From positions 1,492,601 through 1,556,600 of the forward strand of contig CAYJMP010000001.1 in assembly GCA_964371625.1 (NCBI GenBank): a stretch of DNA of 64,000 nucleotides, read 5' to 3'. Position numbers and translations under genes: made by a program. Under the pieces are notes generated by a model that did not search any database, was not told where the DNA came from, and saw only the letters and a list, made by a program, of their open reading frames with translations. How positions within the stretch are numbered: the stretch's first letter is position 1; every line of letters begins with the position of its first letter. This document shows, piece by piece, positions 646-58,913 of the stretch. Source of the DNA: an uncultured Ignavibacteria bacterium (GTDB lineage: Bacteria; Zixibacteria; MSB-5A5; WJJR01).

Positions 646-3432
646 TCAGCGGTACCCGAAGACTTCGGCCCAGATAATGAGAAGGATCAGCCCCAACCCA
701 AGCGAGAGCGCGATCCAGCCAAAGACTTTCATACCCTTGACCACCATAGGCGGCAGAGGCTCGGCCAAGTGCTTCTTGAGTTGACCGGTGCGAACCAACT
801 CCTCGAATTCCCGAGGCCGATCAAGGCGGAATTCCTGAATCGGCACGCGTCCCGTGAAGATGACCGTGTCCATCGGGAATTTGTCCGGACGGAAGTGTGT
901 ATTGAAAAAGTGTACGGTGAAGATGAAACCCACCGCCAATAGCGCTTCATCCGAGTGGATGATGGTCGCCACGTTGATGAACCACCCCGGCAGCAACTTT
1001 GTGAAGAATTCCGGGAACCACAACATCAGCCCGGTCGAGCCGATGATCAGCACGCCCCAGAAGACCGCGAAGTAGTCAAATTTCTCCCAGTACGTCCATC
1101 GCCCATAGCGCGGACGCGGCCCGGCGCCGACAAACCACTTGAGCGTTGCTTTCAAGTCCAGCCAGTCGTTTCGGTTCGGCAGCATCGAATCTTTGTCGAG
1201 CAGGAACTTGAACCACGACTTCCGGCTTTCTTTGCGCCGCTTCCAGACGTCGTGCAGATGCATCGCGAAGTACCCAAAAGTAATCACGGCACACACCCGA
1301 TGCACAAATGACGCCGCCTCAAATCCACCGAACATGCGTGAGAGGAACTGCGCCCAACCCAGGTATGAAAACTTGAGCGTCATCCCCGTCAATGCCAACC
1401 CGAGGAAGCTGATGACCACGAGAATGTGCATTTGCCGCTGACGGCGCGTGAACCGCTTGAACTCCAGTCGATGCGGTTTGGCTTCGATCTTCTGGTGCTG
1501 CCGCATCGCCTGGAACGATCGCGGCATCCACATCAGGGTATGCGTCCCTGCGAGAGTCAACGTGCCAATCAAGAGCGTGCTCATGAACCAAAACGTGTAG
1601 TACAGAATCGGGTACTTGTTCTTGTCGTGATGGGTCGCGTGCGTCAAGTATCCAGCAAAACGCCGGTTCGAGCCGGGGTGGCATTGCGCGCAAGTCTGCA
1701 CGATGTTGGCACGTGATAGGTGCGACGCGGGCTCACTGGGCGGGAGAATGTCGTGCGAGCCGTGGCAATCGTAGCACTTGGCGGCCATGGTGTATCCGAG
1801 CTTGGAGACTTTACCGTGGAACGTCTCGAAATACGACTCGGTCACATCCTTGTGGCACTCGCCGCATTGCGCCGTGATCGCCAGCTTGAACCCCTCGTCG
1901 CCGGTTCGTGTGATCGTGTGCGATGAGTGGCAGTCGATACAGACCGGGAGCTTTTTGTCGCTGGTCGAGACCGCCGTTGAGTGAATGCTCTTCGAGAACT
2001 TCTCAAAGATCCCATTGTGGCACCGCGCGCATGTTTCCGGGACGTTTGTGTGGTTGACGCTCGACTCGGGGTTGTCTTTCGGCAGGACATGATGCGCCGT
2101 GTGGCAATCGGTGCACATGGCGGTCACCACCAGGCCGCTCTCCAAGAGTCCCTTGCCGTGGATGCTCTCTGTGTAGTGCTCGATGATGTCGTGCTGCGTT
2201 CCTGTGTAGCGGACCGCGGCCTTCTTACCCTCTCGGTGGCATTGCGCGCAGAGCTTCGGAACATTGATTGGGAATGTCGCGGACTTCTGATCGCGTCGAT
2301 CCCGGATCCCATGATCGCCGTGGCAGTCTGTGCATGTCGGCGCATTCGGATCGCCGCGATCGACCAGTTGTCCGTGCGTGCTCGTCGCGTACACCGAATC
2401 GACACCGGCATGACACACGCCGCAATCGACACGCGCCGCTACCGTCGCGCAGGGACGCTCGTGTCCCTGGCGCGATGCCCCCGTGTGGCATTGGGCGCAG
2501 GCAACTTTGGATCGGTGATGTATCGACGGCCCGAACTCGGCTGAGTCAACAAACAGCGAGACCGTGTCGGCGCCCCTCACGGTCTGCAAATCCGGCCGGA
2601 CATGACAAGTCATGCATTCATCGTCGGAGATGCTCTCCTCGTACACCAGGCGGCGGGTCCGATGCGGTTCATGGCAATCTATACAGACCGGGATTTTGTG
2701 CGGTTCTTTCTCCCACAACTCACCGCGGATGACCTTGGAATGCACATCCTCGATACGCCCATGACACTTCTGGCAGGTGTTTGGAATATTGCTCGCATGG
2801 ATGCTTGAGGCCGGGTCGGTGTGCGGCAGCACATTGTGCGCCGTGTGGCAGTCGGTGCACACTGCGACGACTGTCAGTCCTTTCTTGTAAAGCCCCTCAC
2901 CATGCGCGCCAAATGAATAGTGCGAGAGAATCGAATCCTGAGGAATGTCGTACGTCTGATGAACTGGAGTTCCTTCCTTATGGCAACGCCCGCACATGAA
3001 CGGAATCTGGAACTTCGTGACTCGCGAATTCGGCGACGTCGGGCCCATGATGTCATGCGAACCGTGGCAATCCCAGCATCGCGGCGCCAGCGGGGCGCCA
3101 GAGTTAACCATCCGGCCGTGCATGCTATTGTTGTAGACTCCGGCGATATCATCATGACAGAGGCCACAATCGACCGGAGCGAGTGGAGCGTCATGGGGAA
3201 ATTCGGCGCCCGCCAGATCGCCGTGGCAGTCTATACACGTGAGTGAACCATGCACCGATGCCTGAAAGCCGGGGAGTAGGAGATTGACCCGCTGACCTGT
3301 TCGCTCTGAGACGAGCGACGGATCCTCATGGCACATCATGCAATCTTCGAGCGACTGCGCCAAGCTGGCTGGCGACATGCAAACCGCCAGTGTCAACACA
3401 CCCAGCGCCACAATCGACAGCCGACGACGCAC
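646..3432 (-). CDS. Giant multiheme c-type cytochrome (19 CXXCH) fused to a C-terminal multi-TM cytochrome b-like domain (CbcL-like architecture)
   Basis: Signal peptide MRRRLSIVALGVLTLAVCMSPASLAQS. The 19 CXXCH motifs are CMMCH, CIDCH, CGLCH, CWDCH, CGRCH, CTDCH, CQKCH, CIDCH, CMTCH, CAQCH, CGVCH, CTDCH, CAQCH, CTDCH, CARCH, CIDCH, CGECH, CYDCH and CAQCH. The C-terminal ~330 aa is hydrophobic with paired His in TM segments (HTLMWMP, MHILVV, HRVCAVITFGYFAMHLHD, IIHSD...FTVHFFNTHF), typical of Ni/Fe-hydrogenase-type diheme cytochrome b. The start overlaps the stop of the upstream gene by 1 nt. Confidence 0.8.
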   Translation of the reverse strand: MRRRLSIVALGVLTLAVCMSPASLAQSLEDCMMCHEDPSLVSERTGQRVNLLLPGFQASVHGSLTCIDCHGDLAGAEFPHDAPLAPVDCGLCHDDIAGVYNNSMHGRMVNSGAPLAPRCWDCHGSHDIMGPTSPNSRVTKFQIPFMCGRCHKEGTPVHQTYDIPQDSILSHYSFGAHGEGLYKKGLTVVAVCTDCHTAHNVLPHTDPASSIHASNIPNTCQKCHGRIEDVHSKVIRGELWEKEPHKIPVCIDCHEPHRTRRLVYEESISDDECMTCHVRPDLQTVRGADTVSLFVDSAEFGPSIHHRSKVACAQCHTGASRQGHERPCATVAARVDCGVCHAGVDSVYATSTHGQLVDRGDPNAPTCTDCHGDHGIRDRRDQKSATFPINVPKLCAQCHREGKKAAVRYTGTQHDIIEHYTESIHGKGLLESGLVVTAMCTDCHTAHHVLPKDNPESSVNHTNVPETCARCHNGIFEKFSKSIHSTAVSTSDKKLPVCIDCHSSHTITRTGDEGFKLAITAQCGECHKDVTESYFETFHGKVSKLGYTMAAKCYDCHGSHDILPPSEPASHLSRANIVQTCAQCHPGSNRRFAGYLTHATHHDKNKYPILYYTFWFMSTLLIGTLTLAGTHTLMWMPRSFQAMRQHQKIEAKPHRLEFKRFTRRQRQMHILVVISFLGLALTGMTLKFSYLGWAQFLSRMFGGFEAASFVHRVCAVITFGYFAMHLHDVWKRRKESRKSWFKFLLDKDSMLPNRNDWLDLKATLKWFVGAGPRPRYGRWTYWEKFDYFAVFWGVLIIGSTGLMLWFPEFFTKLLPGWFINVATIIHSDEALLAVGFIFTVHFFNTHFRPDKFPMDTVIFTGRVPIQEFRLDRPREFEELVRTGQLKKHLAEPLPPMVVKGMKVFGWIALSLGLGLILLIIWAEVFGYR

Positions 3433-5465
3433 TAATGATCTCCGCTCTGTTTGCCGCTCTTGCCGCTGCCGCCCTCGTCGCCTTCATTACTCGGAGTCCG
3501 CCGGTCGGAGAGGTGCTCGGCTTCGTTCGTCGAAGTGGGCGGCAATGCCGGATCGCCGGGATGTTCATGGCGATACACGTCCTCCGGCATCTTCCCCGTG
3601 TACCAGGAGGGATTCATCGGATAAACCGCCGGGCTGAACACGGTTGAATACATGTGCCAGATCAGAATGGCAAGAGTCGCCAGCCAGGCTTCGTAGTAGT
3701 GGATCACCAACATCACATCCAGGAAACCTTTGGGGAAAAACTTGACGGCCAATGACTCTTCCCACATGAAGAGACCCGTGATGGCCATGATTACTGTGCC
3801 CCAGACCAAGGCCCAGTACTCCGCCTTTTCCACGTAACTGAACCGGCCGAATGATGGACGGGAAGCGCTGCGGCCAAGATTGTAGTAAATCATCTGCTTG
3901 AATTCCGAGATATCCGATTTCCCGGGCATCATGTCGATGATGAATTGCCGACCGCGCGGGCGTAACAGGTACCCGACATGCCACATCGCCGTCAGAATGA
4001 AGAGAATGGCGGAGACACGGTGGATCGTGCCGCGAAGCGGGAAACCGCCCTCGCGCCCGAACAATAACTGCACCCACCACGCGTCCGAAAAACGCAGCGC
4101 GAATCCCGTGACTACGAGAACGATAAACGTGACCATGAGAAACGTGTGCTGCCAGACCTCATTGAACGTCATGCGGACAAACTGCTTCCTGAGGTTTACC
4201 AAATGAATCTGTTTGCGCAGATCGATGAGCCAATGCAGGACCATCCCGCCGATCACGACAAAGATGATGACGATGTAGATGTTCTTAATGATCCCGGCGA
4301 TCGGTGTCCGGCTCACTCCGGGCGATCCGTGGATTGGCGCTGTTGCCGCGGCGACGGAGATCCCCGGATGACAATGGCCGCAGGTCTTCTGCAGGTTGCC
4401 TTGATTGATCGAAGACGCCGAGTCGGTTGACGGAAGAATGCGATGGCCGCCGTGACACGAGGCGCAGTTCGCCACTGTCACGTCCCCGGTCTTGCTCTTC
4501 AGGCCATGATAGCTGTCGACAAAAGTCTTCAAACGGCCGGTGGGTATCCCGTATTTCTCATTCAGGCGGGCCGACTCATGACAAGGTGAACAAGTGGCCT
4601 CAGCCACACGGCTGGGGCTCACCGGGGATCGCGGATCCCGCAGCGGCAGAATGCCGTGCTCGCCATGGCAATTGGTGCATACCGGCGAGTCCGTCTCGCC
4701 GCGCTCGGTCAGCTGCCCGTGGATTCCCTCCCAATAGTCCTGCTCGACGTTGCGATGGCATTTTCCACAAGTCTTCGGGATGTTGAAGTGGTTGATCGAG
4801 GACTCAGTGTTCCCAGCGGGCAGTATCCGATGTGCTGTCCCCGCAGTCGAATGGCAATCATTGCAGGTCGCGGCAAGGTGCACGCCCGCAGTCGAGGCAC
4901 GGCCATGGACGCTGCTCTCGAACACTTCTATGGGCCGCTCGAGCGGAATCTTGTGTTTCTTGACCAGATCGAGATTCTCGTGACAGCTAGCGCAGGTGCG
5001 CGGGAGATTGATGGGATTGACCTTCGAGTGACGGTCCGTCGAGGGCAGGATATCATGCGTCCCGTGGCAATCAGCGCAGTTGGGAATATCCTCGCCGACA
5101 CCGACTCGCAGCCGCCCGTGCCATTGGTAAATCGAAGTCTCCTCCTCGTGGCACGACCCGCAGTTGACCTTCGCAAGCTTCTCGGCATGTGGGAAATCAG
5201 AGACGCCAGCGAGGTCAGCATGGCAGCTTGAGCACTCAAAGGTCGCGTGCGCGGATTGACCGACCTGTTCCGCGGTAACGACCAATGAGTCGGCACGTGG
5301 CCCATAGTCCTCAAACATGTCGCGCGTGCCGTGGCACTCAAGACACGTGCTGTTGTCGGCGACCGCGGTTGCGAAGGAACACAGGCTGAACGCGAGGACG
5401 ATTACCAGCCAGATAGCAATGGTCGACCTCGAACTCTGATAACGTGGTAGGACGGCGTTGGACAT
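3432..5465 (-). CDS. Multiheme c-type cytochrome (11 CXXCH) fused to a C-terminal cytochrome b-like membrane domain (second CbcL-like protein)
   Basis: The 11 CXXCH motifs are CLECH, CSSCH, CGSCH, CADCH, CASCH, CNDCH, CGKCH, CTNCH, CSPCH, CASCH and CGHCH. The C-terminus is multi-TM with conserved His (MVLHWLIDL, HTFLMVTF, HRVSAILFILTAMWHVGY, VIHYYEAW...IWHMY). I chose the start at MSNAVLPRYQSS (5465), preceded by GAGAGGGG; the ORF extends to 5525. Confidence 0.75.
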   Translation of the reverse strand: MSNAVLPRYQSSRSTIAIWLVIVLAFSLCSFATAVADNSTCLECHGTRDMFEDYGPRADSLVVTAEQVGQSAHATFECSSCHADLAGVSDFPHAEKLAKVNCGSCHEEETSIYQWHGRLRVGVGEDIPNCADCHGTHDILPSTDRHSKVNPINLPRTCASCHENLDLVKKHKIPLERPIEVFESSVHGRASTAGVHLAATCNDCHSTAGTAHRILPAGNTESSINHFNIPKTCGKCHRNVEQDYWEGIHGQLTERGETDSPVCTNCHGEHGILPLRDPRSPVSPSRVAEATCSPCHESARLNEKYGIPTGRLKTFVDSYHGLKSKTGDVTVANCASCHGGHRILPSTDSASSINQGNLQKTCGHCHPGISVAAATAPIHGSPGVSRTPIAGIIKNIYIVIIFVVIGGMVLHWLIDLRKQIHLVNLRKQFVRMTFNEVWQHTFLMVTFIVLVVTGFALRFSDAWWVQLLFGREGGFPLRGTIHRVSAILFILTAMWHVGYLLRPRGRQFIIDMMPGKSDISEFKQMIYYNLGRSASRPSFGRFSYVEKAEYWALVWGTVIMAITGLFMWEESLAVKFFPKGFLDVMLVIHYYEAWLATLAILIWHMYSTVFSPAVYPMNPSWYTGKMPEDVYRHEHPGDPALPPTSTNEAEHLSDRRTPSNEGDEGGSGKSGKQSGDH

Positions 5466-5539
5466 AGACCCCTCTCGCCTTCGGCTCGCCTGCGGCGCGC
5501 CTGCGGGGAGATCGTCCCCCCACACTCAAATCCTACGTA

Positions 5540-5585
5540 TCAATGTCCGGATTGTCAACGAACCCTCGCCAAGGAATGACAGAGA
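5540..5585 (-). promoter_or_regulatory. Sigma70-like promoter candidate upstream of the 11-heme fusion gene
   Basis: The minus strand reads CGTTGACAATCCGGA-N-TTGA...TAGGAT: TTGACA, a 17-nt spacer, then TAGGAT, about 80 nt upstream of the start. The 15-mer CGTTGACAATCCGGA is identical to the element at 7125..7170. Confidence 0.35.
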
Positions 5586-5632
5586 GCCCGCAAGTCTCGA
5601 TGAATTTTGTCAACTTCTATAGGTCAGAATTG

Positions 5633-7054
5633 TCAACGTTTTGGCAGATCTTCCAGGACCGGAGTCGGATTCTCTTCCTCGTACGCCAACAACTGATGGC
5701 AGGCGCCGCAGTCCTGAGAAATGGTCAGACCCTCCGGCGAAACGTGATTCTCGTCGTGACAGCGGAAACACCCATTCGAGAATGTGTGCCCGATGAAATT
5801 GCGGTACGTCCCCCACACGATTCCCATTTCCGGGAAAATGTTGCGCGACCAGATGCCTGCGAGCACGTCCGCCGCCTGTTCTACCATTTCGCCCTTACTG
5901 CTCGCCAAATCCGGGTACTCAGTGCGATAATAAGTCCGCACTGCAACGCGGATGTCGCGGGCAGCGTCTTCGCGCGAGCCGTACGGCTGCTTCAGAATTC
6001 GGACTCCCTCCCGCTTGATAAACGGCAATTCGGCGGGCAGATCGCCCGTGACCAACGCTTCGTCGACGGCCACCTCGGGCACTTCAAAGGTGTGCGCCGG
6101 GCGATTGTGGCAGTCCATACAATCCATGACGCGACGCGGCATCGTCCGCAGTTCTTCGATAGGGTAAGGGGAATCGCTCGAGACGTACTCGGTCTGGCGT
6201 CCGTCAAGATCAGTCATTTTGATGTACGCAATGGTGTCACGGACTTCATCGAGAGCGACATACTCGACCTTGTTCTTGATGTTCATGTGCCAGTGAATAC
6301 CTGCGGTCCCGCCGAGTTTCGGGCTGCCTCCCCCGGTCTTCATCAGCAGGATGTTCTTGAGCGCCGTGTTGGCCGAGTCTTCCTGGTATCGCGTCTTCAC
6401 AACAAGCTTGAAGCTGTGAAACTTCTCCGGCCAATGACATTGCTCGCAGGTCTCTCGCGCCGGGCGCAGGTTGCGGACTGGCGAAGGGATGGGCTTTTCG
6501 TAGGTATCGAAGGTGACGGCGATCACCTGTCCCAAGCCCGACAGTTTGGATTTCACATACCAGTCCGCGCCCTCGCCAATGTGACACTCAACGCACGCGA
6601 CTCGCGCATGCGGGCCGTTCCGGTACGACGTGAGTTCCGGCTCCATAACCGAGTGGCATACCTCGCCGCAGAAGGTCGTCGTGTCCATGAAGACCACGCT
6701 CTCGTACGCGGTCGCCGCCATGAGCGAGACCACAAGCGCGGCGGTGATCGTCATCACGATGATTCGCCGACGGGTCCGCGTGTCATCGAGGTTGACTTCT
6801 ACACGAATCAGCCCCTTAGGCAATCCTGCCGCGTGGGCGAGCCGGCGTCGTTCCCAGCTCATCCCCACGGGAATCAATACAATGCCCAACAATATGAAGC
6901 CGGGAAGCACGAGAAAGGCGATGACGCCGATATATGGGTTCGATTCGAAACCCAGCCAGGCAGCCACAAGGATGAACAGTATGAACACCGCTGACACGCA
7001 AACGGTCAGCAGACCCGCGAAACTGATCCAGTTGCTTGTCAGTCGTTTAAGCAC
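5633..7054 (-). CDS. Membrane-anchored multiheme c-type cytochrome (6 heme motifs), possible NapC/NirT- or ImcH-like quinol-oxidising inner-membrane cytochrome
   Basis: Two N-terminal TM helices (FAGLLTVCVSAVFILFILVAAWLGF; IGVIAFLVLPGFILLGIVLIPV). Heme motifs are CGEVCH (CX3CH), CVECH, CEQCH, CMDCH, CFRCH and CGACH. The antisense ORF 5543..6994 is judged spurious. Confidence 0.6.
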   Translation of the reverse strand: MLKRLTSNWISFAGLLTVCVSAVFILFILVAAWLGFESNPYIGVIAFLVLPGFILLGIVLIPVGMSWERRRLAHAAGLPKGLIRVEVNLDDTRTRRRIIVMTITAALVVSLMAATAYESVVFMDTTTFCGEVCHSVMEPELTSYRNGPHARVACVECHIGEGADWYVKSKLSGLGQVIAVTFDTYEKPIPSPVRNLRPARETCEQCHWPEKFHSFKLVVKTRYQEDSANTALKNILLMKTGGGSPKLGGTAGIHWHMNIKNKVEYVALDEVRDTIAYIKMTDLDGRQTEYVSSDSPYPIEELRTMPRRVMDCMDCHNRPAHTFEVPEVAVDEALVTGDLPAELPFIKREGVRILKQPYGSREDAARDIRVAVRTYYRTEYPDLASSKGEMVEQAADVLAGIWSRNIFPEMGIVWGTYRNFIGHTFSNGCFRCHDENHVSPEGLTISQDCGACHQLLAYEEENPTPVLEDLPKR

Positions 7055-7124
7055 CTTACTCTCCCTTGCCCTTCATGCATGATGGCCAAGCCGGCCGAAC
7101 CATGTCAGAGGGCTCTAAACCTAT

Positions 7125-7170
7125 CCTCAATCATCCGGATTGTCAACGCCGTCAGTTCAATCACTGACAG
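7125..7170 (-). promoter_or_regulatory. Sigma70-like promoter candidate upstream of the 6-heme membrane cytochrome gene
   Basis: The minus strand reads GGCGTTGACAATCCGGATGATTGAGGATAGGTT: TTGACA, a 17-nt spacer, then TAGGTT, about 80 nt upstream of the start at 7054. Confidence 0.3.
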
Positions 7171-7244
7171 TCAACTGGCATATATGACAAAGCGGGCCGC
7201 CGAAAATCCGGCGGCCCGCTGCGACAGAAGAGTGGTCCGAATCG

Positions 7245-8306
7245 CTATTTCGCAGCCGACTGGGCCAGGTAGTCTAAACTCGCCGCGATGACATCCTCCG
7301 CATAGCGGGGATTGTGCACTCCATCACTCAGATCGTAATGCAAGAGCTTGTAATTCCACACCACGCCTCGATCATTGGCATTCAGTGGCGCGGCGGCACC
7401 TGTCCTGACCGAATCGCCGTTTTCACTCACCCAGCCACGAGCAAAGAGCGCATCACGGAGTTCATCGAGATGCTCATTAAAGGCGTCTTGAACGGCATTG
7501 ACATCGGTCCTCGCCATCTGATCCGCCGAGGATCCCGTCCAGTTTAGGTGGCAACCGGCCTCGCGGCAACCGCTCGAGTTAATTCTGGTGCCCGACGAGT
7601 AATTGATGGCAAAACTGTGGCCACCGGAGATCGCATTGTCCGGAAGATTCGCCATGTGGCAGGTCACGCAGCCGTTGGCGATGGCGTTGTGAGTGGCGTT
7701 GGTCCGATAAACTGCGCCGGGCAGCACCCAAGCGCCCTGCCCAGACAAGACATTTGACTGTGGGCCGTAATGTGTACCCCACCGGTAGCTGGTGATCAGT
7801 GTCGCTTCGTCATCTATCGCGGGCTCCGGGGCACGTGCCTGATGACAAACCGCGCATGTATTACTCTCAGCTTTGTCATAAGACGTACCCACAGTCATCG
7901 CTGTCGCCCCCTCCTTGCGTAGACCGAAATCCCCGAAAGTGTGAGGGGCGTGGCAAGCAAAACAGCCAATGTGAGACGACTCCTCCAACGGGGCGGACTC
8001 ACCCGTTGCGATGTAGGTCTGGTACCCTTCCGTACTGTGGCAGCGGGAGCATGCGGCGCTGCTCTCCGCGGTGCCCCGGACATATGTGTCGCTCAAGTTG
8101 TGCCGTGAGAGGGCAAACTGCGTTTGGATCGTCCGCAGATAGTACACCGAGTCGTCAACAAGTTCGTATTCGTCCGTGTGGCAATTCATACACGTTGCCA
8201 CCCCTGGCGGACCCTGCGGGCCCACGTCGCCCTCGCAACTGGCCAACCCCAAGAGCATCAGCCCGACAGCCAATGGCATGGCCGCCTTCAACCATTGTTT
8301 CATCCC
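7245..8306 (-). CDS. Multiheme c-type cytochrome lipoprotein (5 CXXCH plus one CX4CH), candidate outer-membrane/extracellular component
   Basis: Lipoprotein signal MKQWLKAAMPLAVGLMLLGLASC (lipobox LASC). Motifs are CMNCH, CSRCH, CFACH, CAVCH, CVTCH and CREAGCH. A short collagen-like GPQGPPG stretch follows the lipobox. The ORF extends to 8330; MKQW is the preferred start. Confidence 0.65.
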   Translation of the reverse strand, partial: GMKQWLKAAMPLAVGLMLLGLASCEGDVGPQGPPGVATCMNCHTDEYELVDDSVYYLRTIQTQFALSRHNLSDTYVRGTAESSAACSRCHSTEGYQTYIATGESAPLEESSHIGCFACHAPHTFGDFGLRKEGATAMTVGTSYDKAESNTCAVCHQARAPEPAIDDEATLITSYRWGTHYGPQSNVLSGQGAWVLPGAVYRTNATHNAIANGCVTCHMANLPDNAISGGHSFAINYSSGTRINSSGCREAGCHLNWTGSSADQMARTDVNAVQDAFNEHLDELRDALFARGWVSENGDSVRTGAAAPLNANDRGVVWNYKLLHYDLSDGVHNPRYAEDVIAASLDYLAQSAAK

Positions 8307-8351
8307 GCGCTCCTTTCGATCACTATTCAAAATCCTCGTCTTTCATGACCA

Positions 8352-9470
8352 TCATTCCGGATCCCGTCCGTGACAACGCTCGCAGAAACCGACGCCTGGC
8401 CGACGCGCCCCGCCCTCGTGACAGACATAGCAAACAGCGTTTTCATCGTCGTGCCATGAGCCCTTAACATCGCGCATGAATCCCTCGGGATGTGGCGAGA
8501 TGGTGTTGCGATGGCATCGCAGGCATGTCGGCTCGGCAGCACTCTCTTCGTGGCAGGCCGCGCAAACCTCAATATCGGTGCGCGCAAACTCGGCGTGCCT
8601 GTGGTATTCGAAATCGGCCAAGTCATGCCACACTGGCTTCAGCCGCGAACCATCATTCTCGGGGTTATGGCAGGCATTGCAGAATGTCTGCGGTTCGTGG
8701 CAAACTGCGCAGTCCAAGGTCTTCGCGCGCACGTCACTACCGTGCGTCCAACGGTAGTTCAGATCATGCGCCCGCTGCAGAATCAAAAGGTCGTTTCCCT
8801 CATGGGCTGAAGCCATCGGACCAATTCGATCGACCGGCGCGTCCGCCTTATTCAAGATCGCCAGTCCCAGCGCCGCCCCTTCGTGGCACTCCGAGCAGTA
8901 ACTCTCACGATGACATGTCTCGCACGATTTGGCGTCGCCCCGCGCCTTGATTGAGTGATCCGACACCCAGTCGGCCACGTGATCCTTGGGGCGGAGCAAC
9001 TGTACCTGCGAATGGCACACGTTGCAGTTGTCGTTCATCTCACGTTCGCCGTGGCAATCAGTGCAAATCGACATCGACGGCAGGGCATGACTCGGAGCCT
9101 TCGTCGATTTCTCGACCCCTGCATGACAGCTCGCGCATTCCATCCCCATCGACACGTGCTTGGCGTGGTCGAAGATGAGTTCACGCGCCGGTGTCGGCCA
9201 CGGCGATGAGCCATCGGCCGGGACCGTCCAGTTCATGTCGGCTTGCTCGTGACAGCCGTAGCAGTCTGCAAGAGTGGGCAGCAGTATCGTCACCGAGGTC
9301 GTGGCAGAACTGGCCGCTTTGTGGCAATCGAGGCAGGCGGCGCCAACGTCTTCAATATGCTTTTTATGATCGAAGGGGATCGTGGGAGTCTTCGTGCCCG
9401 AGGCGTATGCCGAAAAGAAGATTGCTCCCGCCGCCATCACCAAACCCACTATGGTTGCGCGCCGCTTCAT
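8352..9470 (-). CDS. Periplasmic multiheme c-type cytochrome (13 CXXCH), MtrA/OmaB-like candidate
   Basis: Signal peptide MKRRATIVGLVMAAGAIFFSAYASG. The 13 motifs are CLDCH, CYGCH, CASCH, CTDCH, CNVCH, CETCH, CSECH, CAVCH, CNACH, CAACH, CLRCH, CYVCH and CERCH. The ATG overlaps the stop of the upstream beta-barrel gene (ATGA-type coupling at 9470). Confidence 0.75.
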   Translation of the reverse strand: MKRRATIVGLVMAAGAIFFSAYASGTKTPTIPFDHKKHIEDVGAACLDCHKAASSATTSVTILLPTLADCYGCHEQADMNWTVPADGSSPWPTPARELIFDHAKHVSMGMECASCHAGVEKSTKAPSHALPSMSICTDCHGEREMNDNCNVCHSQVQLLRPKDHVADWVSDHSIKARGDAKSCETCHRESYCSECHEGAALGLAILNKADAPVDRIGPMASAHEGNDLLILQRAHDLNYRWTHGSDVRAKTLDCAVCHEPQTFCNACHNPENDGSRLKPVWHDLADFEYHRHAEFARTDIEVCAACHEESAAEPTCLRCHRNTISPHPEGFMRDVKGSWHDDENAVCYVCHEGGARRPGVGFCERCHGRDPE

Positions 9471-10771
9471 TATTGCCCACCCCCCTCGGTCGATCCCTGC
9501 CCACCCAAGCGGTTGAAGAACCACCAGGAGAATCGCGCGATCACGCGGAAATCCGATTCGTCTCCGGCGAACGACGCCATGGTCTTCAGGTCTTGAGTCA
9601 GATATTGCAGCTCCAGATCCCACGATGCTTGCGGCATCCACTGCCACCGCACCCCGGCCCACGCCGAGGCTTCGGTATTGGATTCTTCCTGATCCTCGAA
9701 GAGTTCGTAAGTCGAATAGTGCGAGCCGCCGCGCAATGTCCAGCGTGGGTTGAGCGGATACATGGCTTCCCCGGACAACGACACGGTCGATCCGGAGGCT
9801 CCCGCCTTGGTGTGGAGCATGAGTGAGAAATACTTGTGTGAGGCCCCGAGATCAAAACGTTGGGCACTTTCATCAGCGATGTCCACCAAGGCCCCGCCGA
9901 CTGTCAATGTCCAGGTCTCGTTCACGCGGTAGTGCAGTCGCAATCGTCCTTCGCGGAACTCGGTATCACCAAACACCCAAAAGATCGAATTGTAAGCGAG
10001 GCCGGGACGACGATAGCGAAATTGCCCTTGCACGCTGAGCTTCGAAGTCGCATCCCAGCGCGCCGAAATATGCGCCCGCTGGATCCGTGAGCGCGGTTGA
10101 TCATAGAGGAGATTTCCATAGAGAGAACCGAACGCCGGGAACGACCTGCGCCAATCGAGTCCGAAATTACGGGACGCGAGATCATCCACCTCCGTCGACC
10201 CATAACTGCGCTGAATTCGGCGCTCGGCAAAGGTCAGAAACATGGTTCCCATCATCGGGCATCGTCTGCCGACTCGTAGACCGAACGCATGCCCCTCATC
10301 GAAATCTCTCGGCTTGAATCGTCCGTCTTCCGGAGCGAGTGATCCGATGTATCCGCCAAGCTCAAATTCTTTCCAGAAGCGCAAATCGGCAGAGCCGCCG
10401 TCAATAGCTAACGAGCCATTCGGCCAACTCATCCGGTGGCGTCCAACAGTCAGATCGAGGACGTTCGCCAGCTTCTTCCAGCGCGCATAGAGGTCGTAGA
10501 CACGGTAATCGTCGACATTGTCTCCCTGACTGCGCGAGTCCAAACGGCCGCGCATGGTCGTCGCGATTTCCAAGTCCTGGCCGCCGATCCGGCCGAGACG
10601 CAAGCCCAATGTCCCGGAGTTCTGCCAATGCCGTGTGTCGGTGCTGTCGAGCTCACTGCGCTCCCACAAATAGCTGGAAACACCGACTCGACCCGTGAGC
10701 ACAGCCGCGTTGGCTGATATCGAAATCCCGAGGAGAATGACCAGAGCAAGACTAACAGGTATACGGTTCAT
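9470..10771 (-). CDS. Predicted outer-membrane beta-barrel protein, candidate porin of a porin-cytochrome conduit
   Basis: Signal peptide MNRIPVSLALVILLGISISANA, then ~410 aa rich in alternating aromatic/Gly beta-strand-like segments (YRVYDLYARW, FGLRVG, LYGNLLYD, WTLTVGGALV, RVIARFSWWFF). It is first in the operon, immediately upstream of and coupled to the 13-heme cytochrome. No homology search was possible; the call rests on position and composition. Confidence 0.45.
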   Translation of the reverse strand: MNRIPVSLALVILLGISISANAAVLTGRVGVSSYLWERSELDSTDTRHWQNSGTLGLRLGRIGGQDLEIATTMRGRLDSRSQGDNVDDYRVYDLYARWKKLANVLDLTVGRHRMSWPNGSLAIDGGSADLRFWKEFELGGYIGSLAPEDGRFKPRDFDEGHAFGLRVGRRCPMMGTMFLTFAERRIQRSYGSTEVDDLASRNFGLDWRRSFPAFGSLYGNLLYDQPRSRIQRAHISARWDATSKLSVQGQFRYRRPGLAYNSIFWVFGDTEFREGRLRLHYRVNETWTLTVGGALVDIADESAQRFDLGASHKYFSLMLHTKAGASGSTVSLSGEAMYPLNPRWTLRGGSHYSTYELFEDQEESNTEASAWAGVRWQWMPQASWDLELQYLTQDLKTMASFAGDESDFRVIARFSWWFFNRLGGQGSTEGGGQ

Positions 10772-11202
10772 CGGGCTCCCCCACGATTTGACGACCCTTC
10801 CATCCACCGATAGTATCGGCGGGTCATTTCGATCCGAGAACCATGACCGCGATCACGGTACATTTGTTGACATCCGCTGGCAAGGAAGAACGCCACAAAC
10901 GTCAACTGTTTTTGACAACATAAGCCGAAAGATTGCCGTGCGCTGGGCCCCTACGAGGCGAGTGGCCACTCACTTGCGCGTGCCCCTAAATACGACAGAC
11001 TAAGTAGTATTTGCAACATCGGACTCACGACGCCCCGCATCGGCATCTCGAGAAAGCCGGCTGACCAATGCTCAGCGGCACGAGGACAATCCGCACATCT
11101 TAGTCCATGTGACTCAACAAATTCGCCGCCGCGCCGATACTGAATAATGGACCTCAGGCGCCCCGGGCGCAGTCCCCGTTACGCCTGAATCGAGCGAGCG
11201 TC

Positions 11203-19216: not shown

Positions 19217-20380
19217 CTAGAAGTACGTCGCCAGTGAGAAACTGAACAATTTGCTGGGCACTGACCACGTCGTCGCGCCGGTTCCGCGCGTCCATGACCA
19301 ACTGTAGTCGGCTTTGACAACCGTGCCTTCGACCGGACGCATATTGAGACCGAAAGTGGCCGCCTGCTCATCGTCGCCGTCGCGATCGGTGTCGTAGTCG
19401 ACGCGGTCCCACCGCACCACGCCGGTGAACACGCTCTCCGGATAACGCCGGATCGCGCCAAAGCCGAAGTGGTATCCCACCTGGGCATAGAAGCCCATTT
19501 GCGCCTCTGCGGTCGGGGAGGCTGATGGCGCTACATCGGCGGAGACCAACGCCCCCTCCCCGCTGAACTGGTACGGCCCGCGCTGCAGATCCCAGTCCAG
19601 CGCGCCGATTGTGAGATCCTGCTCGCCGAAGTCGTCGTACTTCCCATGATGCCCGGATATCCCGACATCGACACCGAGCATCGGCGAGGCCGACAAACGA
19701 CCAGTGATCGCCTTGTTCTCGTTGTTATCAGTCTTCTGTGAACCGCGACCGCCGCGTACGCGCAGCCGCTGATTGCTGTCTATGATTCTCTGATTGAACC
19801 CGTTTATGATGTAAAGCTCGTACCCGATGACCCAATCCTGCGGATAGAACGACCCAAAGACCCCCATGCCGGCCTCGGACAATGTGGTCGGGAGCAGTTG
19901 ACGCGAGACTGCCGGCCTATTGGTGAGATCGTTGAGCGGCGAATCATGGATGAGGTTAAATTTCCCCAATGGCGTCAGAAGCACACCACCACGGATGTTG
20001 AGCGCATCCGAGAATACCCAGTCCATGAAGGCGTATTCCAATTTGATCTCGCCGTCCGTCTCCTCGTCGCCGGCCACTGCTCCTCCGTGCTCGAACTCGA
20101 TCTCCGTTGCGACGTGGATGTAATCAACCGGTTGCGCGAATATGAACGGGATGAGTCGATGCTGGTCGAACGTGGAATGCTCCCCGGATATTAGAAGTTC
20201 GTGATCCATATATCCACCGATCGCGATGCCGCCCGCGAAGTTTTTCAGATAGGGCTTGTCGGTGATTCCGCCTGGAACGACCGGGCGCGGACCAGTTGCA
20301 ACTTGCGCATGTGACGATTTTGCGGCCAGGATGCCGCAACCAAGGAACGCGGCGGCAAAAACGATCGACTTACGATACAT
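19217..20380 (-). CDS. Predicted outer-membrane beta-barrel protein (porin-like), first gene of the ApbE operon
   Basis: Signal peptide MYRKSIVFAAAFLGCGILAAKSSHAQ. Beta-rich composition and a C-terminal ...FSFSLATYF ending in Phe, typical of OM beta-barrels. A 6-nt gap separates it from apbE. Confidence 0.45.
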   Translation of the reverse strand: MYRKSIVFAAAFLGCGILAAKSSHAQVATGPRPVVPGGITDKPYLKNFAGGIAIGGYMDHELLISGEHSTFDQHRLIPFIFAQPVDYIHVATEIEFEHGGAVAGDEETDGEIKLEYAFMDWVFSDALNIRGGVLLTPLGKFNLIHDSPLNDLTNRPAVSRQLLPTTLSEAGMGVFGSFYPQDWVIGYELYIINGFNQRIIDSNQRLRVRGGRGSQKTDNNENKAITGRLSASPMLGVDVGISGHHGKYDDFGEQDLTIGALDWDLQRGPYQFSGEGALVSADVAPSASPTAEAQMGFYAQVGYHFGFGAIRRYPESVFTGVVRWDRVDYDTDRDGDDEQAATFGLNMRPVEGTVVKADYSWSWTRGTGATTWSVPSKLFSFSLATYF

Positions 20381-20555
20381 GAAACCCTCCAAAAGGTGAC
20401 GCAGCGTCGACGCTGCAACAAGACACACCACAGTCATCCCCACTCAAGATGATTGCAGACATGTGAACGGAGAATAGCTCTCGTAGGTCAGGGGCCCGCT
20501 CTCCGAAGGCCCTGAGCGAAGTCGAAAGGGTTGGGCCCTGACTTGCCGCTGTGAG

Positions 20556-21538: not shown

Positions 21539-22756
21539 GTGGAAGAGGGTGAGGACTTAGTAATGTTGAAAGAGAAGAATTCAGGACGGCGACATACTTC
21601 TAATGACAGCGCAATCTCGGCGGTGCACGCAATCGCAGCGAGAGACCATCGCCGCTTGTTACCAGCGATCATCAGTATGGCTGCAACAACCGTCGTCGTG
21701 GCAATCTGCCTGGGACTGCATCCTTCAGGCGCCAGAGCGGGAGTCGAATCCTCCGTCGCAAGTCAGCCCGACAGGGTGGCCGTGGATAGTGGCCAATCCT
21801 CTGGCGCTGTCACAGGAGGGCCATCGATCCACTTTCCGGAGCCATCATTTGATTTTGGCACGGTCTCTCAGGGAACCAAAGTCGCCCACACATTCGCCGT
21901 GAAAAACACCGGCGATAAACCGCTGAAATTGATCAGGGCAAAGGCAACGTGAGGGTGCACAGCTGCCGTCTTGACAGTGACGGACATTCCCCCGGGCGGG
22001 GAAGGCAAAATAGAGGTGACCTTCGACAGCACACACAAGAAAGGCAAGCAGCAGAAGTCTATCACCGTAGAATCGAACGATCCTGCTCATCCGGAGTCGA
22101 CCCTACGGATTTCCGTGCTGATCGAGGTTGAGTTTGAATTCGAGTCTTCCATCTTGAGCATCGGTCACATTCGCAAAGGAGCACCCACAACCAAGACTGC
22201 GGTTCTGTTGATCAAGGATCCCTCCAAGAGAAGCCTGATCAATCTCACTTCCCAATCTTCTCAGATCGCTGCCCGGTTGGTTGAATCGGCAGCCGTCGAC
22301 AGTGGCCGAATTGATGTTGAAATCACCGTGAGTCCTGAGACGCCAGCCGGAAAAATGAATCAGTGGGTTATGGCAGAGATATCGGATGGCTCGTATCCGA
22401 CAGCAAGGCTGCAGATCGAAGGAACCGTTGTTGGCAATGTTGAGGTAAGTACTGAGAATGTGCGCTTCACAGTCGATACCTCCCGAGCGGCAACTGCTCC
22501 GACCGAACAAGAGATACAAGTCAGCGGCACACAGAGCGAATTCAAATTCCGGCTGCTGGGTGTTGAAGATTCCAAGGGCCTCTTGGCAATCGACATTGAT
22601 ACTGTGGCTGCTGGAGAGCGGTACGTAATCAGAGCGAAACCTAACGCGAATGCCTTGAAACTGAGGGGCAGTGCTTCGGGCGTAATGCGGATACTGACTG
22701 ACGATTCAGAACAGCCTGTGTTTGCAATCGGTTATGGCATCATTATCAGGCGCTGA
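21539..22756 (+). CDS. DUF1573-family secreted protein interrupted by an in-frame TGA (21950..21952) at the first Cys of the conserved SCGCT motif; selenocysteine candidate or pseudogene
   Basis: ORFs 21539..21952 and 21971..22756 are in the same frame. The joined translation ...FDFGTVSQGTKVAHTFAVKNTGDKPLKLIRAKAT[TGA]GCTAAVLTVTDIPPGGEGKIEVTFDS... matches the DUF1573 consensus ...PL.I..V..SCGCT...PG..G.I.V.F. A hairpin CCGTC-TTGACAGT-GACGG begins 13 nt after the TGA. Confidence 0.5.
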
Positions 22757-32422: not shown

Positions 32423-34606
32423 TTAACAGGATTTGACAATCTCCGCGGGGATGGACTTGAATGCCGGGGTCTTTGATTGGGGGTCGATCCTGCGGGGCAC
32501 CAGGATATTTGCCTCCGGGTAGTACATGGCGATATTGCCGGGCGCGATGTCAATGATCGCCACATGGGCGTGTAACGCCCCCACCTCGGTTCGCACGGTC
32601 ACGCCGTCGCCCTCGCGAAGCAATAAGATTCCGGCATCCCGCGCAGAGATCATCACGACGTCCCGTCGGGTGTTACCGCGGTACAGATCCTCTTCCTCGT
32701 AGACCACGGTATTGAATTGGCCCTCTGACCGAATGGTTGTTAGGCGGAATTCGCCTTTCCCGGCGACCGCGGCCGGCAGGCGTGTGACAAAAAACTGCGC
32801 CCGTCGTTCAGTCGTGCCGAACTCTGGCAGATGAAATGTCCGCCCGCGGATCTGAAATTCGTGCCTGGTCTTGTCGATCTCGGCCAACTCTTCAAGACCC
32901 GGCACGACACGCGCCATTTCCTGGCGCAGGTGCCGGTGCGAGCGCAGCGCCTTCCAATCGAATCGGCCCGATGGCAGAATCCGCTCGGCGAGTTCCGCGA
33001 TCACCTCGACTTCCGAGCGCATCTCACCGGCCACGGCAGGTATACCGCCGTCCGACAGGCGCACGAAATTGAACATCGACTCCTGTGTCGTCGCCTGGAA
33101 TTCTTCATCGCGCGCCAGCACCGGCAGAATGATCGACGTCTGATCACGCCCGTGGATATGCCCCTCGTTCAGTTTGGTCGTGATTGAGAGCGTGAAGGGA
33201 ATTCGCCGGAGCGCGATCCCGGCCCAATCACGATCGGGATTAGAGGAGAAGAGATTGCCCCCGAGCAAGACCGCCGCTTTGATCCGCCCCGCATGTGCCG
33301 CCTCCATCGATGCATATGTGTCCATTCCCGGCGTCCGGGGGACAGTGATTCCATAAACCTCCTCCAGCTTCTCGGCAAACACCCGCTTGACCGCCGGCGA
33401 GACGCCGACAGATCCGACTCCCTGCACATTCGAATGTCCGCGAATCGGTAGAAGCCCACACCCCGGCTTGCCCACCCATCCGCGCGCCAGCGCGAGATTG
33501 GCCAGCGCAATGATATTGTCTACGCCATTCTCGTGGTGCGTTAGCCCCATCGCCCAGAGAAAGATGCCGCGTTGCGCCTTGAGCAAGGCGGACACCGCGC
33601 GACTCAGACTCTCTTGATCCAGGCCGCACGCTTCGAGGAGGTCCCGCCACGACGTCTGCATGACATCGTGGACGACCTCTTCCCAACCCTGCGTGTGTTG
33701 ACTGATAAAGTCGTGGTCGATTCCCCCGCGCTCGAACACGCCCTTGAGCAGCGCTTTGAAGACGGCGACATCGCTGCCCACATGCGGTTGGAGATAGATG
33801 TCGCTGACGGTCGAGCCGAAGAGCATACTACGCCAATCCGACGGCACACGGAATCGTGTCAGCCCCAGTTCCTTGATCGGATTCACCACGATGACAATTC
33901 CGCCGCGACGTCGCAACTGCACCAATTGCGAGATCAGGCGCGGATGATTGCTGGCGGGGTTGGCCCCGGCGACGATCGCGAGATCGGCTTTGGCGAGGTC
34001 ATCCAGTACAATGGTGGAGGTTCCAGTGCCAACCACGCGACTCAATGCCACACCGGATGCCGAATGGCAGTAGAACGAACAATTGTGAATGTGTGCGGTG
34101 CCGAACGCCCGTGCGATCAACTGAAAGAGAAACGCCGCCTCATTGCTCGATCTCCCCGATGAATAGAAGAAGACTTCGTCCGGGGGAACGCCGGAAATCT
34201 TCTCACCAGAAAGCCTGAGCGCTTCATCCCAGGAGACTCGCCGGAAGTGCGTATCGCCGGGGCGGGCGATGATGGGGAATGCGAGCCGTCCGAGACGCTC
34301 AATTGCCGCGGGGCTCAGTCGCCCAAGGTTCTCAATCGACATCTCTGCAAACAGATCTTCACTGATCGCGCCTTGCATATCCCCCGCCTGCGCTTGCACC
34401 GACTTCTTGCACACCTCGGGGAAATGCCCGGCCTCGTTGACCATGCCACCAGCTTGGCCGCCCATTCCCAGCGCGCAGGTCTTGCAGACATTGCGTCCGC
34501 GCAGACGCCGGTAAAGACGAAGGACCCCACCAGCCTCCCGTCCTTTCTTCCAAACATAGAGGAGGGCGGGCATACCTCCGGCGGCGCTGACTTTCGGTTT
34601 GGCCAT
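32423..34606 (-). CDS. FdhF/YdeP-family molybdopterin oxidoreductase (formate-dehydrogenase-like)
   Basis: Start chosen at MAKPKVSAAGGMPALLYVWKKGREAGG, typical of the YdeP-family N-terminus; the ORF extends to 34825. It has a Cys cluster CKTCALGMGGQ and a molybdopterin oxidoreductase-like body. It is divergent from queE. Confidence 0.7.
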   Translation of the reverse strand: MAKPKVSAAGGMPALLYVWKKGREAGGVLRLYRRLRGRNVCKTCALGMGGQAGGMVNEAGHFPEVCKKSVQAQAGDMQGAISEDLFAEMSIENLGRLSPAAIERLGRLAFPIIARPGDTHFRRVSWDEALRLSGEKISGVPPDEVFFYSSGRSSNEAAFLFQLIARAFGTAHIHNCSFYCHSASGVALSRVVGTGTSTIVLDDLAKADLAIVAGANPASNHPRLISQLVQLRRRGGIVIVVNPIKELGLTRFRVPSDWRSMLFGSTVSDIYLQPHVGSDVAVFKALLKGVFERGGIDHDFISQHTQGWEEVVHDVMQTSWRDLLEACGLDQESLSRAVSALLKAQRGIFLWAMGLTHHENGVDNIIALANLALARGWVGKPGCGLLPIRGHSNVQGVGSVGVSPAVKRVFAEKLEEVYGITVPRTPGMDTYASMEAAHAGRIKAAVLLGGNLFSSNPDRDWAGIALRRIPFTLSITTKLNEGHIHGRDQTSIILPVLARDEEFQATTQESMFNFVRLSDGGIPAVAGEMRSEVEVIAELAERILPSGRFDWKALRSHRHLRQEMARVVPGLEELAEIDKTRHEFQIRGRTFHLPEFGTTERRAQFFVTRLPAAVAGKGEFRLTTIRSEGQFNTVVYEEEDLYRGNTRRDVVMISARDAGILLLREGDGVTVRTEVGALHAHVAIIDIAPGNIAMYYPEANILVPRRIDPQSKTPAFKSIPAEIVKSC

Positions 34607-34703
34607 AAAAAGAAGAACCGAATCTGTCGGATTTCCCGCAAGTGGCCCGTTTATTCGGCCCCGCCCCCTTGTACCGATCCGGTTCGCGGGGTATTTTGTG
34701 GGT

Positions 34704-35360
34704 GTGGATAACGACGCGAACACCCTCGTGATCAACGAGATATATCCGAGCATCCAAGGCGAGTCCTCGTATGCGGGCCTTCCCTGCGTTTTTGTACGGC
34801 TCACTGGCTGCAGTCTGCGCTGCACTTATTGCGATACGGAATACGCCTTCTATGACGGCGAGCGGCGTTCAGTGGATGATGTGCTCAATCAAGTTTCAGA
34901 ATACAAGATACGCTTGGTAGAAATTACCGGCGGCGAACCGCTCCTGCAAAAGGGCTGCGCGACTCTGGCCAAAGGGCTGCTCGGTTTAGGAAAACAGGTT
35001 CTGGTTGAGACTTCGGGCGCATTTCCTATCGATGTCCTGCCCGAAGGCGCGATCCGCATCATGGACCTGAAATGCCCATCATCGGGCGAGTGCGATAAGA
35101 ATGACTGGGACAATATCAAGCGGCTCAAACCGTTCGATGAGGTCAAATTCGTCATCGGCGACCGCGAAGATTATGATTGGACCCGGGACGTGATGCAGAA
35201 ATACAACCTCTCGAAACGATGTGCCGTGCTCATTTCAACGGTCTTCGGGAAGATTGATCCCGCCGCCGTGACTGAATGGATGCTGGCCGATAATCTTGAC
35301 GCGCGATTCCAACTGCAGATGCACAAGTACATCTGGGATCCATTACAACGGGGCGTATGA
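34704..35360 (+). CDS. queE: 7-carboxy-7-deazaguanine synthase (radical SAM)
   Basis: INEIYPSIQGESSYAGLPCVFVRLTGCSLRCTYCDTEY is the QueE signature (CX14CX2C-type cluster). The start is uncertain: GTG at 34704 or 34728 is preferred over ATG at 34599, which would overlap the divergent gene start. Confidence 0.7.
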   Translation: MDNDANTLVINEIYPSIQGESSYAGLPCVFVRLTGCSLRCTYCDTEYAFYDGERRSVDDVLNQVSEYKIRLVEITGGEPLLQKGCATLAKGLLGLGKQVLVETSGAFPIDVLPEGAIRIMDLKCPSSGECDKNDWDNIKRLKPFDEVKFVIGDREDYDWTRDVMQKYNLSKRCAVLISTVFGKIDPAAVTEWMLADNLDARFQLQMHKYIWDPLQRGV

Positions 35361-46396: not shown

Positions 46397-46508
46397 TTCC
46401 ACCACCCCTTTTGAGTTTCGATCCCGCTGGCCCGTATTGGGCCAGCGGGATCGATGTCATACATACGGATTCAGTTCACGATCTACAACCCCGCAGACAA
46501 CGTGCCAA

Positions 46509-52445: not shown

Positions 52446-52540
52446 TCGTGCTCTCCTTTTGAGGAAAGTGTTATGATTTGTTCGCATCATTCTATTTGCA
52501 CGTTGGAACTCCGCCAGAGACGCGGAGCGGTCCTTCTTGT

Positions 52541-52918
52541 CTAACGGCTCCCCCCGAAGACAAATGCGCGAAGTTGATCCTGTGTAAATCCGATGAAAAG
52601 TCGCCGCCCGAAGCTGTAAAAACACGCCGAAATTGCCGAGGCCGCCCACTTGAACGGAAGGGCAAAAGATGCATACCGCCTGGTCTTCGGCAACGTGATC
52701 ACGAAACGGCGAAGTTGTGCGTCAGTTAAACGGATGCGCTCACTGAGCGCAACAAACCGGTTGGTAAAGGCGAAGTTGTCCCCGCTGATAAAAGAAAGGT
52801 CAATGACCGCAACGTCCAGCCTAGACCCGGACGGGGTCGCCCGACCGACTTCTATGATAAGCTTTTCAGTCAACTTGTCAATATCCATCCCGGAGATTCC
52901 TAACTCAGTCCATACCAA
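52541..52918 (-). CDS. Hypothetical small protein (weak call)
   Basis: 125-aa ORF immediately upstream of the giant gene; no recognisable motif and no clear RBS. Confidence 0.2.
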   Translation of the reverse strand: MVWTELGISGMDIDKLTEKLIIEVGRATPSGSRLDVAVIDLSFISGDNFAFTNRFVALSERIRLTDAQLRRFVITLPKTRRYASFALPFKWAASAISACFYSFGRRLFIGFTQDQLRAFVFGGSR

Positions 52919-58898: not shown

Positions 58899-58913
58899 TT
58901 CTGCTTCGCGAGC

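Follow-up and report, generated by a model that had tools for sequence, protein, structure and literature searches.

Proteins with the DUF1573 domain (PF07610) and the motif U-G-C, in which U is selenocysteine (Sec), belong to a catalogued prokaryotic selenoprotein family. The "DUF1573 domain-containing protein" is listed among such families (PMC9312934; PMC13188914), both sources citing Zhang and Gladyshev (2007), who described OS_HP2 as a new selenoprotein family from Olavius symbionts (PMC1976440). Almost nothing can be found in the literature on the function of DUF1573, a domain that only four papers were found to mention. In this work we analyzed a stretch of 64,000 nucleotides (the window) from contig CAYJMP010000001.1 (positions 1,492,601–1,556,600, assembly GCA_964371625.1) of an uncultured Ignavibacteria bacterium that is assigned to Zixibacteria in GTDB. 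The window contains a DUF1573 gene on the forward strand (21563–22756) with an in-frame TGA codon at 21950–21952. According to the analysis presented below, this TGA is very probably a selenocysteine codon, and the gene is predicted to encode a 397-residue selenoprotein of the DUF1573/OS_HP2 type.

The first-pass annotation of this DNA had suggested that Sec would be a novelty in the family. This part of it fails, since the U-G-C form of DUF1573 was recognized as a selenoprotein family as early as 2007 (OS_HP2, NF041425); the gene is a new, mis-annotated member of a known family, and current knowledge is not overturned. The clade to which it belongs (the Zixibacteria/Ignavibacteria type) shares with OS_HP2 the same PF07610 domain, the position of Sec as the first residue of U-G-C, where homologues have Cys, and the same downstream hairpin of 17–20 nt as in the members from Desulfobacterales. 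It differs from OS_HP2 in having the hairpin one codon farther from Sec (40 vs. 37 nt), two extra C-terminal immunoglobulin-like (Ig-like) domains for which there is no Pfam model, and public gene calls that give two open reading frames (ORFs). Because its score lies below the cutoff of NF041425 (see below), we assign the gene to a sister clade in the U-G-C family of DUF1573 proteins as defined in PMC9312934 and PMC13188914, and do not treat it as an OS_HP2 protein that the Prokaryotic Genome Annotation Pipeline (PGAP) could call.

A frame that can be entered at GTG 21539 or ATG 21563 is open up to the terminal TGA (22754–22756), and the TGA at 21950–21952 is its sole interruption. Public gene calls, including that of locus L001, use ATG 21563, preceded at a distance of 7 nt by a Shine-Dalgarno-like GAGGA (21551–21555, +) that we read from the sequence; GTG 21539 is not used. 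The gene itself also ends with TGA, which is not followed by a pair of hairpins; therefore, in this genome TGA normally acts as a stop, and the putative recoding is local. When Cys was substituted at the internal TGA, the product matched PF07610 with an E-value of 2.4e-28 (98.5 bits vs. a cutoff of 26.1; profile positions 1–90 of 98). The TGA is residue 130 in the middle of the domain (Pfam match, residues 89–178) and coincides with the first C of the C-G-C-T motif, exactly as the first-pass annotation had placed it. All public gene calls divide the gene at this codon into 129 and 246–261 amino acids (aa). Nearly all close homologues in the protein database are fragments of about 261 aa starting just past the TGA column, because gene callers cannot read through the conserved stop.

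The product consists of a basic N-terminal tail, one hydrophobic helix and three Ig-like beta-sandwich domains. The helix, a signal-anchor or transmembrane segment recognized by inspection of the sequence (RRLLPAIISMAATTVVVAICLGL, approximately 21677–21742, +), follows the basic tail in the same layout as in the orthologues. The DUF1573/HYDIN-VesB-like Ig domain (21827–22096, +) spans the TGA and is matched by PF07610 and, at residues 87–184, by PF22544. The UGA codon for the proposed U130 opens the motif U-G-C-T, and its partner in U-G-C is Cys132, encoded by TGC at 21956–21958 (+); this position is at least 90% conserved. In the AlphaFold2 model of the full-length Cys homologue P0014 (mean predicted local distance difference test score, pLDDT, 87.7), three tandem Ig-like beta-sandwich domains are seen, and C-G-C lies in a turn that connects two strands of the first one. 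From this layout we infer a protein with one N-terminal transmembrane anchor and the rest outside the cytoplasm. A sequence search of the PDB gave only Hydin and generic weak matches, and a Foldseek search of the P0014 model against the PDB gave only generic tandem-Ig proteins (Hydin, cadherins, titin) and no functional clue.

To compare the motif among homologues, we took one genome per species, which yielded 75 related loci with a best match of 58% identity, and read the codon at the motif column. TGA was found in 53 distinct sequences and TGC or TGT in 21, while TAA and TAG were found in none. The carriers of TGA belong to Zixibacteria, Ignavibacteria, Gemmatimonadota, Glassbacteria, Myxococcota, Thermodesulfobacteriota, Desulfobacterales and a few other groups. 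A homologue with TGA is present, for example, in Desulfoferrobacter suflitae DRH4 (L067). The Cys forms are mostly from Bacteroidia (Butyricimonas, Odoribacter), with the addition of Krumholzibacteria/Latescibacterota and one representative of Thermodesulfobacteriota. In all these loci the half of the domain upstream of the TGA (…FPEPxFDFG…H.F.V.N.G..PL.LI.A…) is conserved in frame. Thus, the pairing of Sec with Cys at a conserved position, which the first-pass annotation had put forward and proposed to check in orthologues, is observed across the family.

Several homologues deviate from this pattern. In metagenome loci L113, L123, L128 and L199 the motif with the in-frame TGA has the variants U-H-C, U-S-C, U-G-S and U-G-T, and the 20-nt hairpin is kept; therefore, the second Cys is not universally required. 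Locus L075 contains two DUF1573 domains or genes at 1425 and 2488, about 1 kb apart, one with TGC and the other with TGA. In a metagenome-assembled genome (MAG) of Bacteroidaceae (L060, 1434–1510) TGA occupies the column and neither hairpin is present (minimum free energies, MFE, of 0.0 and −1.6). This is the sole case of TGA in Bacteroidia, and either an error or a genuine nonsense mutation could account for it.

The TGA itself is well supported. Two independent assemblies of the same organism (Logan ERR4863024 and ENA ERZ13692951, NODE_15, with 82x coverage) agree with the window in every base of the gene, the TGA included. The neighbouring regulator gene is carried by 24 contigs, and the adjoining gene calls, with the split at the TGA, are essentially the same. 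The closest relatives for which DNA is available (81 and 66% aa identity) retain TGA at this codon. The ratio of nonsynonymous to synonymous substitution rates (dN/dS) relative to these two was 0.33 and 0.58 upstream of the TGA and 0.17 and 0.31 downstream of it, that is, below 1 on both sides, in line with the earlier argument that conserved flanks speak against an old pseudogene.

The tightest link to the TGA is provided by an RNA hairpin at 21987–22003 (+; hairpin 2) with the structure UUCCCC / CGGGC / GGGGAA (6 bp, a 5-nt loop with G, −8.9 kcal/mol), the loop of which starts 40 nt past the UGA. It lies over the codons for I-P-P-G-G-E. Hairpin statistics were obtained from a gap-free alignment of 47 Sec forms, in all of which TGY follows at the codon of Cys132. 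In its family form (UUCCCC-CGGGY-GGGGAA) hairpin 2 is 100% paired in this alignment, with one compensatory U-A pair (L009). The synonymous third positions of its stem have an entropy of 0–0.25 bits in the 47 Sec forms vs. 1.4–2.0 bits in 16 Cys forms with the same peptide, and synonymous sites in the loop and in the flanks vary equally in Sec and Cys forms.

The 17-mer of hairpin 2 occurs once in the window (0.03 occurrences expected by chance) and once in each of 55 out of 88 loci; its offset is fixed in the Sec forms. An exact match was found in none of the loci with a Cys form, and seven Sec-form loci are without it. A scan of metagenome contigs for the corresponding 20-mer gave at least 109 distinct sequences. 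Among the matches listed, an upstream in-frame TGA was present in 107 of 109 and Cys in none; the triplet series TGA-GGN-TGY was located exactly 36 or 33 nt 5' of the 20-mer in 102, and five further matches had an in-frame TGA with a variant motif or spacing. The data on hairpin 2 are the strongest evidence that the TGA is, as we believe, recoded through RNA.

The first-pass annotation had noticed another stem-loop, CCGTC/TTGACAGT/GACGG in DNA letters, 13 nt past the TGA. It is present at 21966–21983 (+; hairpin 1, CCGUC / UUGACAGU / GACGG), with a 5-bp stem, an 8-nt loop that starts 18 nt past the UGA and an MFE of −8.2 kcal/mol. This hairpin is real and covaries; hairpin 2, more closely linked to the TGA, had been missed. 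RNAalifold applied to the 47-sequence alignment recovered hairpin 2 and did not recover hairpin 1, because the register of the latter shifts between clades, and hairpin 1 was tested by counting pairs in a fixed register instead. In this register it is paired in 83% of the cases. Compensatory changes were revealed in three of its five pairs (e.g., pair 21–30: CG 27, GC 8, UG 3, UA 2), and the covariation score exceeded those of all 500 shuffles and of all slid registers. Lineages that are off register form another hairpin at the same place, CUUUGGC/GCCAAAG in L038 and GGCGCU-GGUC-AGCGCC in L039. The mean MFE of the hairpin 1 zone is −9.4 kcal/mol in Sec forms vs. −0.85 kcal/mol in Cys forms, a difference confounded by GC content and clade. 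Hairpin 2 is favoured over hairpin 1 as the likely binding site of SelB, i.e., as the apical hairpin, because it is invariant in sequence and specific to the TGA forms.

A number of observations, which concern the RNA fold, the family score and the Sec machinery, weigh against the assignment of the TGA to Sec. First, the region folded alone had no extra stability compared with shuffled sequences (z = +0.66), and the significance of the hairpins had therefore to be derived from comparative data. Second, the match to the bacterial selenocysteine insertion sequence (bSECIS) is imperfect. The consensus includes a loop of 3–9 nt, a stem of 4–16 bp, G at loop position 1 or 2, a distance of 16–37 nt from UGA to the apical loop and an MFE of −7.5 kcal/mol or lower (PMC13188914). 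As in bSECIS elements, a stem-loop lies directly 3' of the UGA within the coding sequence; there are, however, two consecutive hairpins here. Hairpin 1 agrees with the consensus in everything except for the loop, which has no G at positions 1–2; a U.G pair closing a GACA tetraloop, drawn by ViennaRNA in several orthologues, would supply this G. Hairpin 2 agrees with it in everything except for its distance from the UGA, which is 3 nt longer than the upper limit, and in family members with one codon fewer (a 9-residue spacing) it is exactly 37 nt. A search of Rfam gave tmRNA alone at the gathering threshold and, for the segment 21900–22100 at a permissive threshold, only a spurious long non-coding RNA match; no SECIS family was matched.

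Third, NF041425, the "OS_HP2 family (seleno)protein" model, is the best NCBIfam match of the product (97.8 bits, E-value 3.7e-28, profile positions 2–97 of 98), but the score is 2.2 bits short of the curated cutoff of 100 bits. In comparison, the forms from Desulfobacterales score 114–144 bits and those from Myxococcota 108 bits. The whole clade of the window gene and other Sec forms below the cutoff (L006, L047, L038, L056) fall in the range of 92–98 bits, and the Cys homologue P0014 reaches 98.8 bits.

Fourth, none of the genes for Sec synthesis and insertion was detected in the window or in the DNA next to it. ARAGORN revealed only tmRNA and no tRNA-Sec in the 64-kb window; sel genes were found neither among about 30 larger ORFs of the window searched with Pfam and NCBIfam nor in the 7 kb past its right end; and tblastn with Escherichia coli SelA, SelB and SelD gave no match in the window or in any of the homologous loci analyzed. 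None of the analyzed loci of the near-orthologue clade contains selA, selB, selD or tRNA-Sec. A scan of the window for pairs of ORFs joined by TGA gave no other convincing selenoprotein candidate. The molybdopterin oxidoreductase gene at 32423–34825 (−) was considered as a second Sec gene of the FdhA type and rejected: it has Cys and is without an in-frame TGA.

At the same time, in ten loci of Myxococcota and deltaproteobacteria (L033, L034, L035, L036, L037, L043, L044, L045, L047 and L049) the DUF1573-Sec gene is followed, at a distance of 0.4–5 kb, by a gene for tRNA-SeC (e.g., L033 7405–7502 and L034 10599–10696). The genes between them are usually a DUF47/PhoU-like gene and a PiT (PHO4) permease gene. 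This adjacency could be lineage synteny or could reflect a functional link to the handling of selenium or oxyanions.

Three other explanations of the TGA were considered. The one that survives best, though improbable, is a programmed read-through without Sec, in which a near-cognate Trp or Cys, for example, would be inserted under stimulation by the downstream hairpins in an organism without the Sec pathway. Such an explanation agrees with the Sec machinery not being found in the searched DNA of this genome and with the 40-nt spacing of hairpin 2, slightly outside the bSECIS consensus. On the other hand, the residue aligned in homologues is always Cys, as expected for a classic Sec/Cys pair, tRNA-SeC genes adjoin homologues, catalogues of selenoproteins include the family, and its members with the 9-residue spacing have the same hairpin within the consensus distance.

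Somewhat less probable still is that the TGA is a true stop and that two proteins are made, an anchored half-domain of 129 aa and a C-terminal protein of 246–261 aa. The uniform split in the public gene calls and the in-frame GTG and TTG codons 3' of the TGA can be cited in its favour. But the split would fall within an Ig-like domain, the Cys homologues (P0014 and the Bacteroidia loci) are continuous proteins, the downstream fragment has no signal or anchor, and plain termination leaves unexplained both the exclusive choice of TGA as the stop and the RNA hairpin linked to it.

Finally, the alternative named in the first-pass annotation, in which TGC has only recently mutated to TGA (pseudogene) or the base is an artefact of base calling or assembly, can be practically dismissed. 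In its favour, a single base change would suffice, no Sec machinery is visible in the window, and one homologue (L028) has an obvious frameshift error nearby. Against it are the two identical independent assemblies, one of them at 82x coverage, the retention of TGA at this column by the closest relatives and by over 150 further distinct loci (more than 50 from genomes and more than 100 from metagenomes), dN/dS below 1 on both sides and the Sec-specific hairpin with its frozen synonymous sites. It should be mentioned that in L028, a homologue from a Zixibacteria MAG, the TGA and the hairpin 2 motif are kept and one extra base shifts the frame (6274–6330); a run of Cs at this place points to a probable homopolymer error in long reads rather than to a pseudogene.

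Thus, we regard the TGA at 21950–21952 as a codon for Sec, as the first-pass annotation had supposed, on the basis of the continuous frame, the domain that spans the codon, the Sec/Cys pairing, the TGA-linked RNA hairpins and the conservation of TGA across loci. The following mechanism can be proposed. SelB and Sec-tRNA(Sec) would decode the UGA as selenocysteine, directed by the structure of the mRNA just 3' of it; Sec is in this case presumably inserted in the organism itself. Hairpin 1 would act through a structure that is kept while its sequence varies, and hairpin 2, nearly invariant and with G-rich loop positions, would be the apical hairpin bound by SelB. The N-terminal helix would anchor the product in the inner membrane, with the three tandem Ig-like domains exposed outside the cytoplasm. 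In the turn of the first domain U130-G-C132 would form a vicinal selenol/thiol pair, which may either cycle as a selenylsulfide in redox reactions or chelate a soft metal or metalloid.

The gene neighbourhood gives some hints as to the function. In the near orthologues from Zixibacteria, Ignavibacteria and Gemmatimonadota, the DUF1573-Sec gene nearly always stands at the end of one operon, in the order ArsR, a 254-aa protein with weak similarity to Redoxin (E-value 0.002), a MacB/FtsX permease, an ATP-binding cassette (ABC) ATPase and DUF1573-Sec. Operons headed by ArsR were found in L002, L003, L006, L008–L012, L015, L020, L021 and other loci (e.g., L006 6336–10789). They are surrounded by arsenic islands with genes for ACR3, ArsC of the low-molecular-weight protein tyrosine phosphatase type, an ArsF-family protein, and thioredoxin-like (Thioredoxin_3) and DsbD-like (DsbD_2) proteins. 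In Myxococcota the DUF1573-Sec gene is located 5' of the DUF47/PhoU-like and PiT-family permease genes.

In the window, ars, ArsR, MacB, DUF47/PhoU-like and PiT genes were not found near the DUF1573 gene. It is flanked by a divergent gene for a DtxR/MntR-like regulator and, on the other side, by a gene for a glucose/sorbosone dehydrogenase of the pyrroloquinoline quinone (PQQ) type. Past the regulator there are a porin-like ORF and ApbE/flavin mononucleotide (FMN)-binding genes. The porin-like ORF (19217–20443, −; 408 aa) has a signal-peptide-like N-terminus and the C-terminal sequence …ATYF; it has no match in Pfam or NCBIfam, and its sequence suggests an outer-membrane beta-barrel. The neighbours of the gene in the relative with 66% identity (L210) have no Pfam match.

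Some other selenoproteins, namely proteins of the Sao system and MerT-like and ArsC-like selenoproteins, have been linked to resistance to metals and metalloids (PMC13188914). The DUF1573-Sec proteins of this clade resemble them in that the operons of the near orthologues lie in ars islands and in that a CxC/UxC motif suits the chelation of soft metalloids. They differ from the Sao proteins in having no sequence relationship to them (no match in NCBIfam), and the window copy differs from metal-resistance selenoproteins in being located outside the ars/ArsR/MacB context. The C-V-C site of ArsR is a precedent for chelation of soft metalloids by CxC. U130 and Cys132 may thus form a periplasmic selenol/thiol site for redox reactions or for the binding of a metalloid, e.g., As(III).

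Besides the DUF1573 gene, several features of the window were recorded. A tmRNA gene with the tag peptide AYDNSYALAA was revealed at 58541–58901 (+) by ARAGORN and Rfam concordantly (RF00023, 164.5 bits). At 646–10807 (−) there is a cluster of multihaem cytochrome genes, including two large proteins (928 and 697 aa) with cytochrome c7/c3 repeats fused to a cytochrome b561-type membrane domain, as well as MtrC/MtrF-like and QrcA-like proteins; the cluster suggests extracellular or periplasmic electron transfer. Two very large ORFs are located at 46509–52649 (−; 2046 aa) and 54514–57936 (−; 1140 aa). The region of the former is annotated as an HYR/CHU_C/FlgD_ig protein in the public gene call (L211), and the latter has no Pfam match. 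A gene for a 449-aa protein with a type IX secretion system (T9SS) sorting domain (45056–46405) adjoins them. The right end of the window, from about 63667 to 64000 (+) and on into L211 (14162–17522), contains genes for GatE-like (GatB_N, 660 aa) and GatD-like (GatD_N and asparaginase, 462 aa) proteins, an archaeal-type Glu-tRNA(Gln) amidotransferase pair in surroundings that otherwise look bacterial (tmRNA, T9SS sorting domain).

For the family as a whole, the results mean that a clade of DUF1573 selenoproteins in Zixibacteria, Ignavibacteria, Gemmatimonadota and their relatives is mis-annotated at present, its ORFs being split in every public gene call and its scores lying a few bits below the cutoff of the NCBIfam model. 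The 17–20-nt hairpin, frozen across phyla and found only together with TGA, makes up a clean natural data set on the recognition of RNA by SelB at a long spacing. The orthologues are strongly linked to ars islands and to a MacB-type ABC transporter, which provides a testable lead: arsenic or other metalloids may be handled by a selenol on the outer side of the cytoplasmic membrane. As a tentative hypothesis, which we consider possible although rather doubtful, the proteins of this clade may be extracytoplasmic selenol-based capture or redox partners of a MacB-type ABC exporter, mostly regulated by ArsR for resistance to arsenic or metalloids; their Sec codon would rely on an unusual SECIS with two hairpins and a long spacing, the apical hairpin being conserved in sequence across phyla, and the copy found in the window would then be a paralogue or a transplant that works outside the ars context. 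If this is true, these genes would represent a previously unrecognised arsenic-resistance module.

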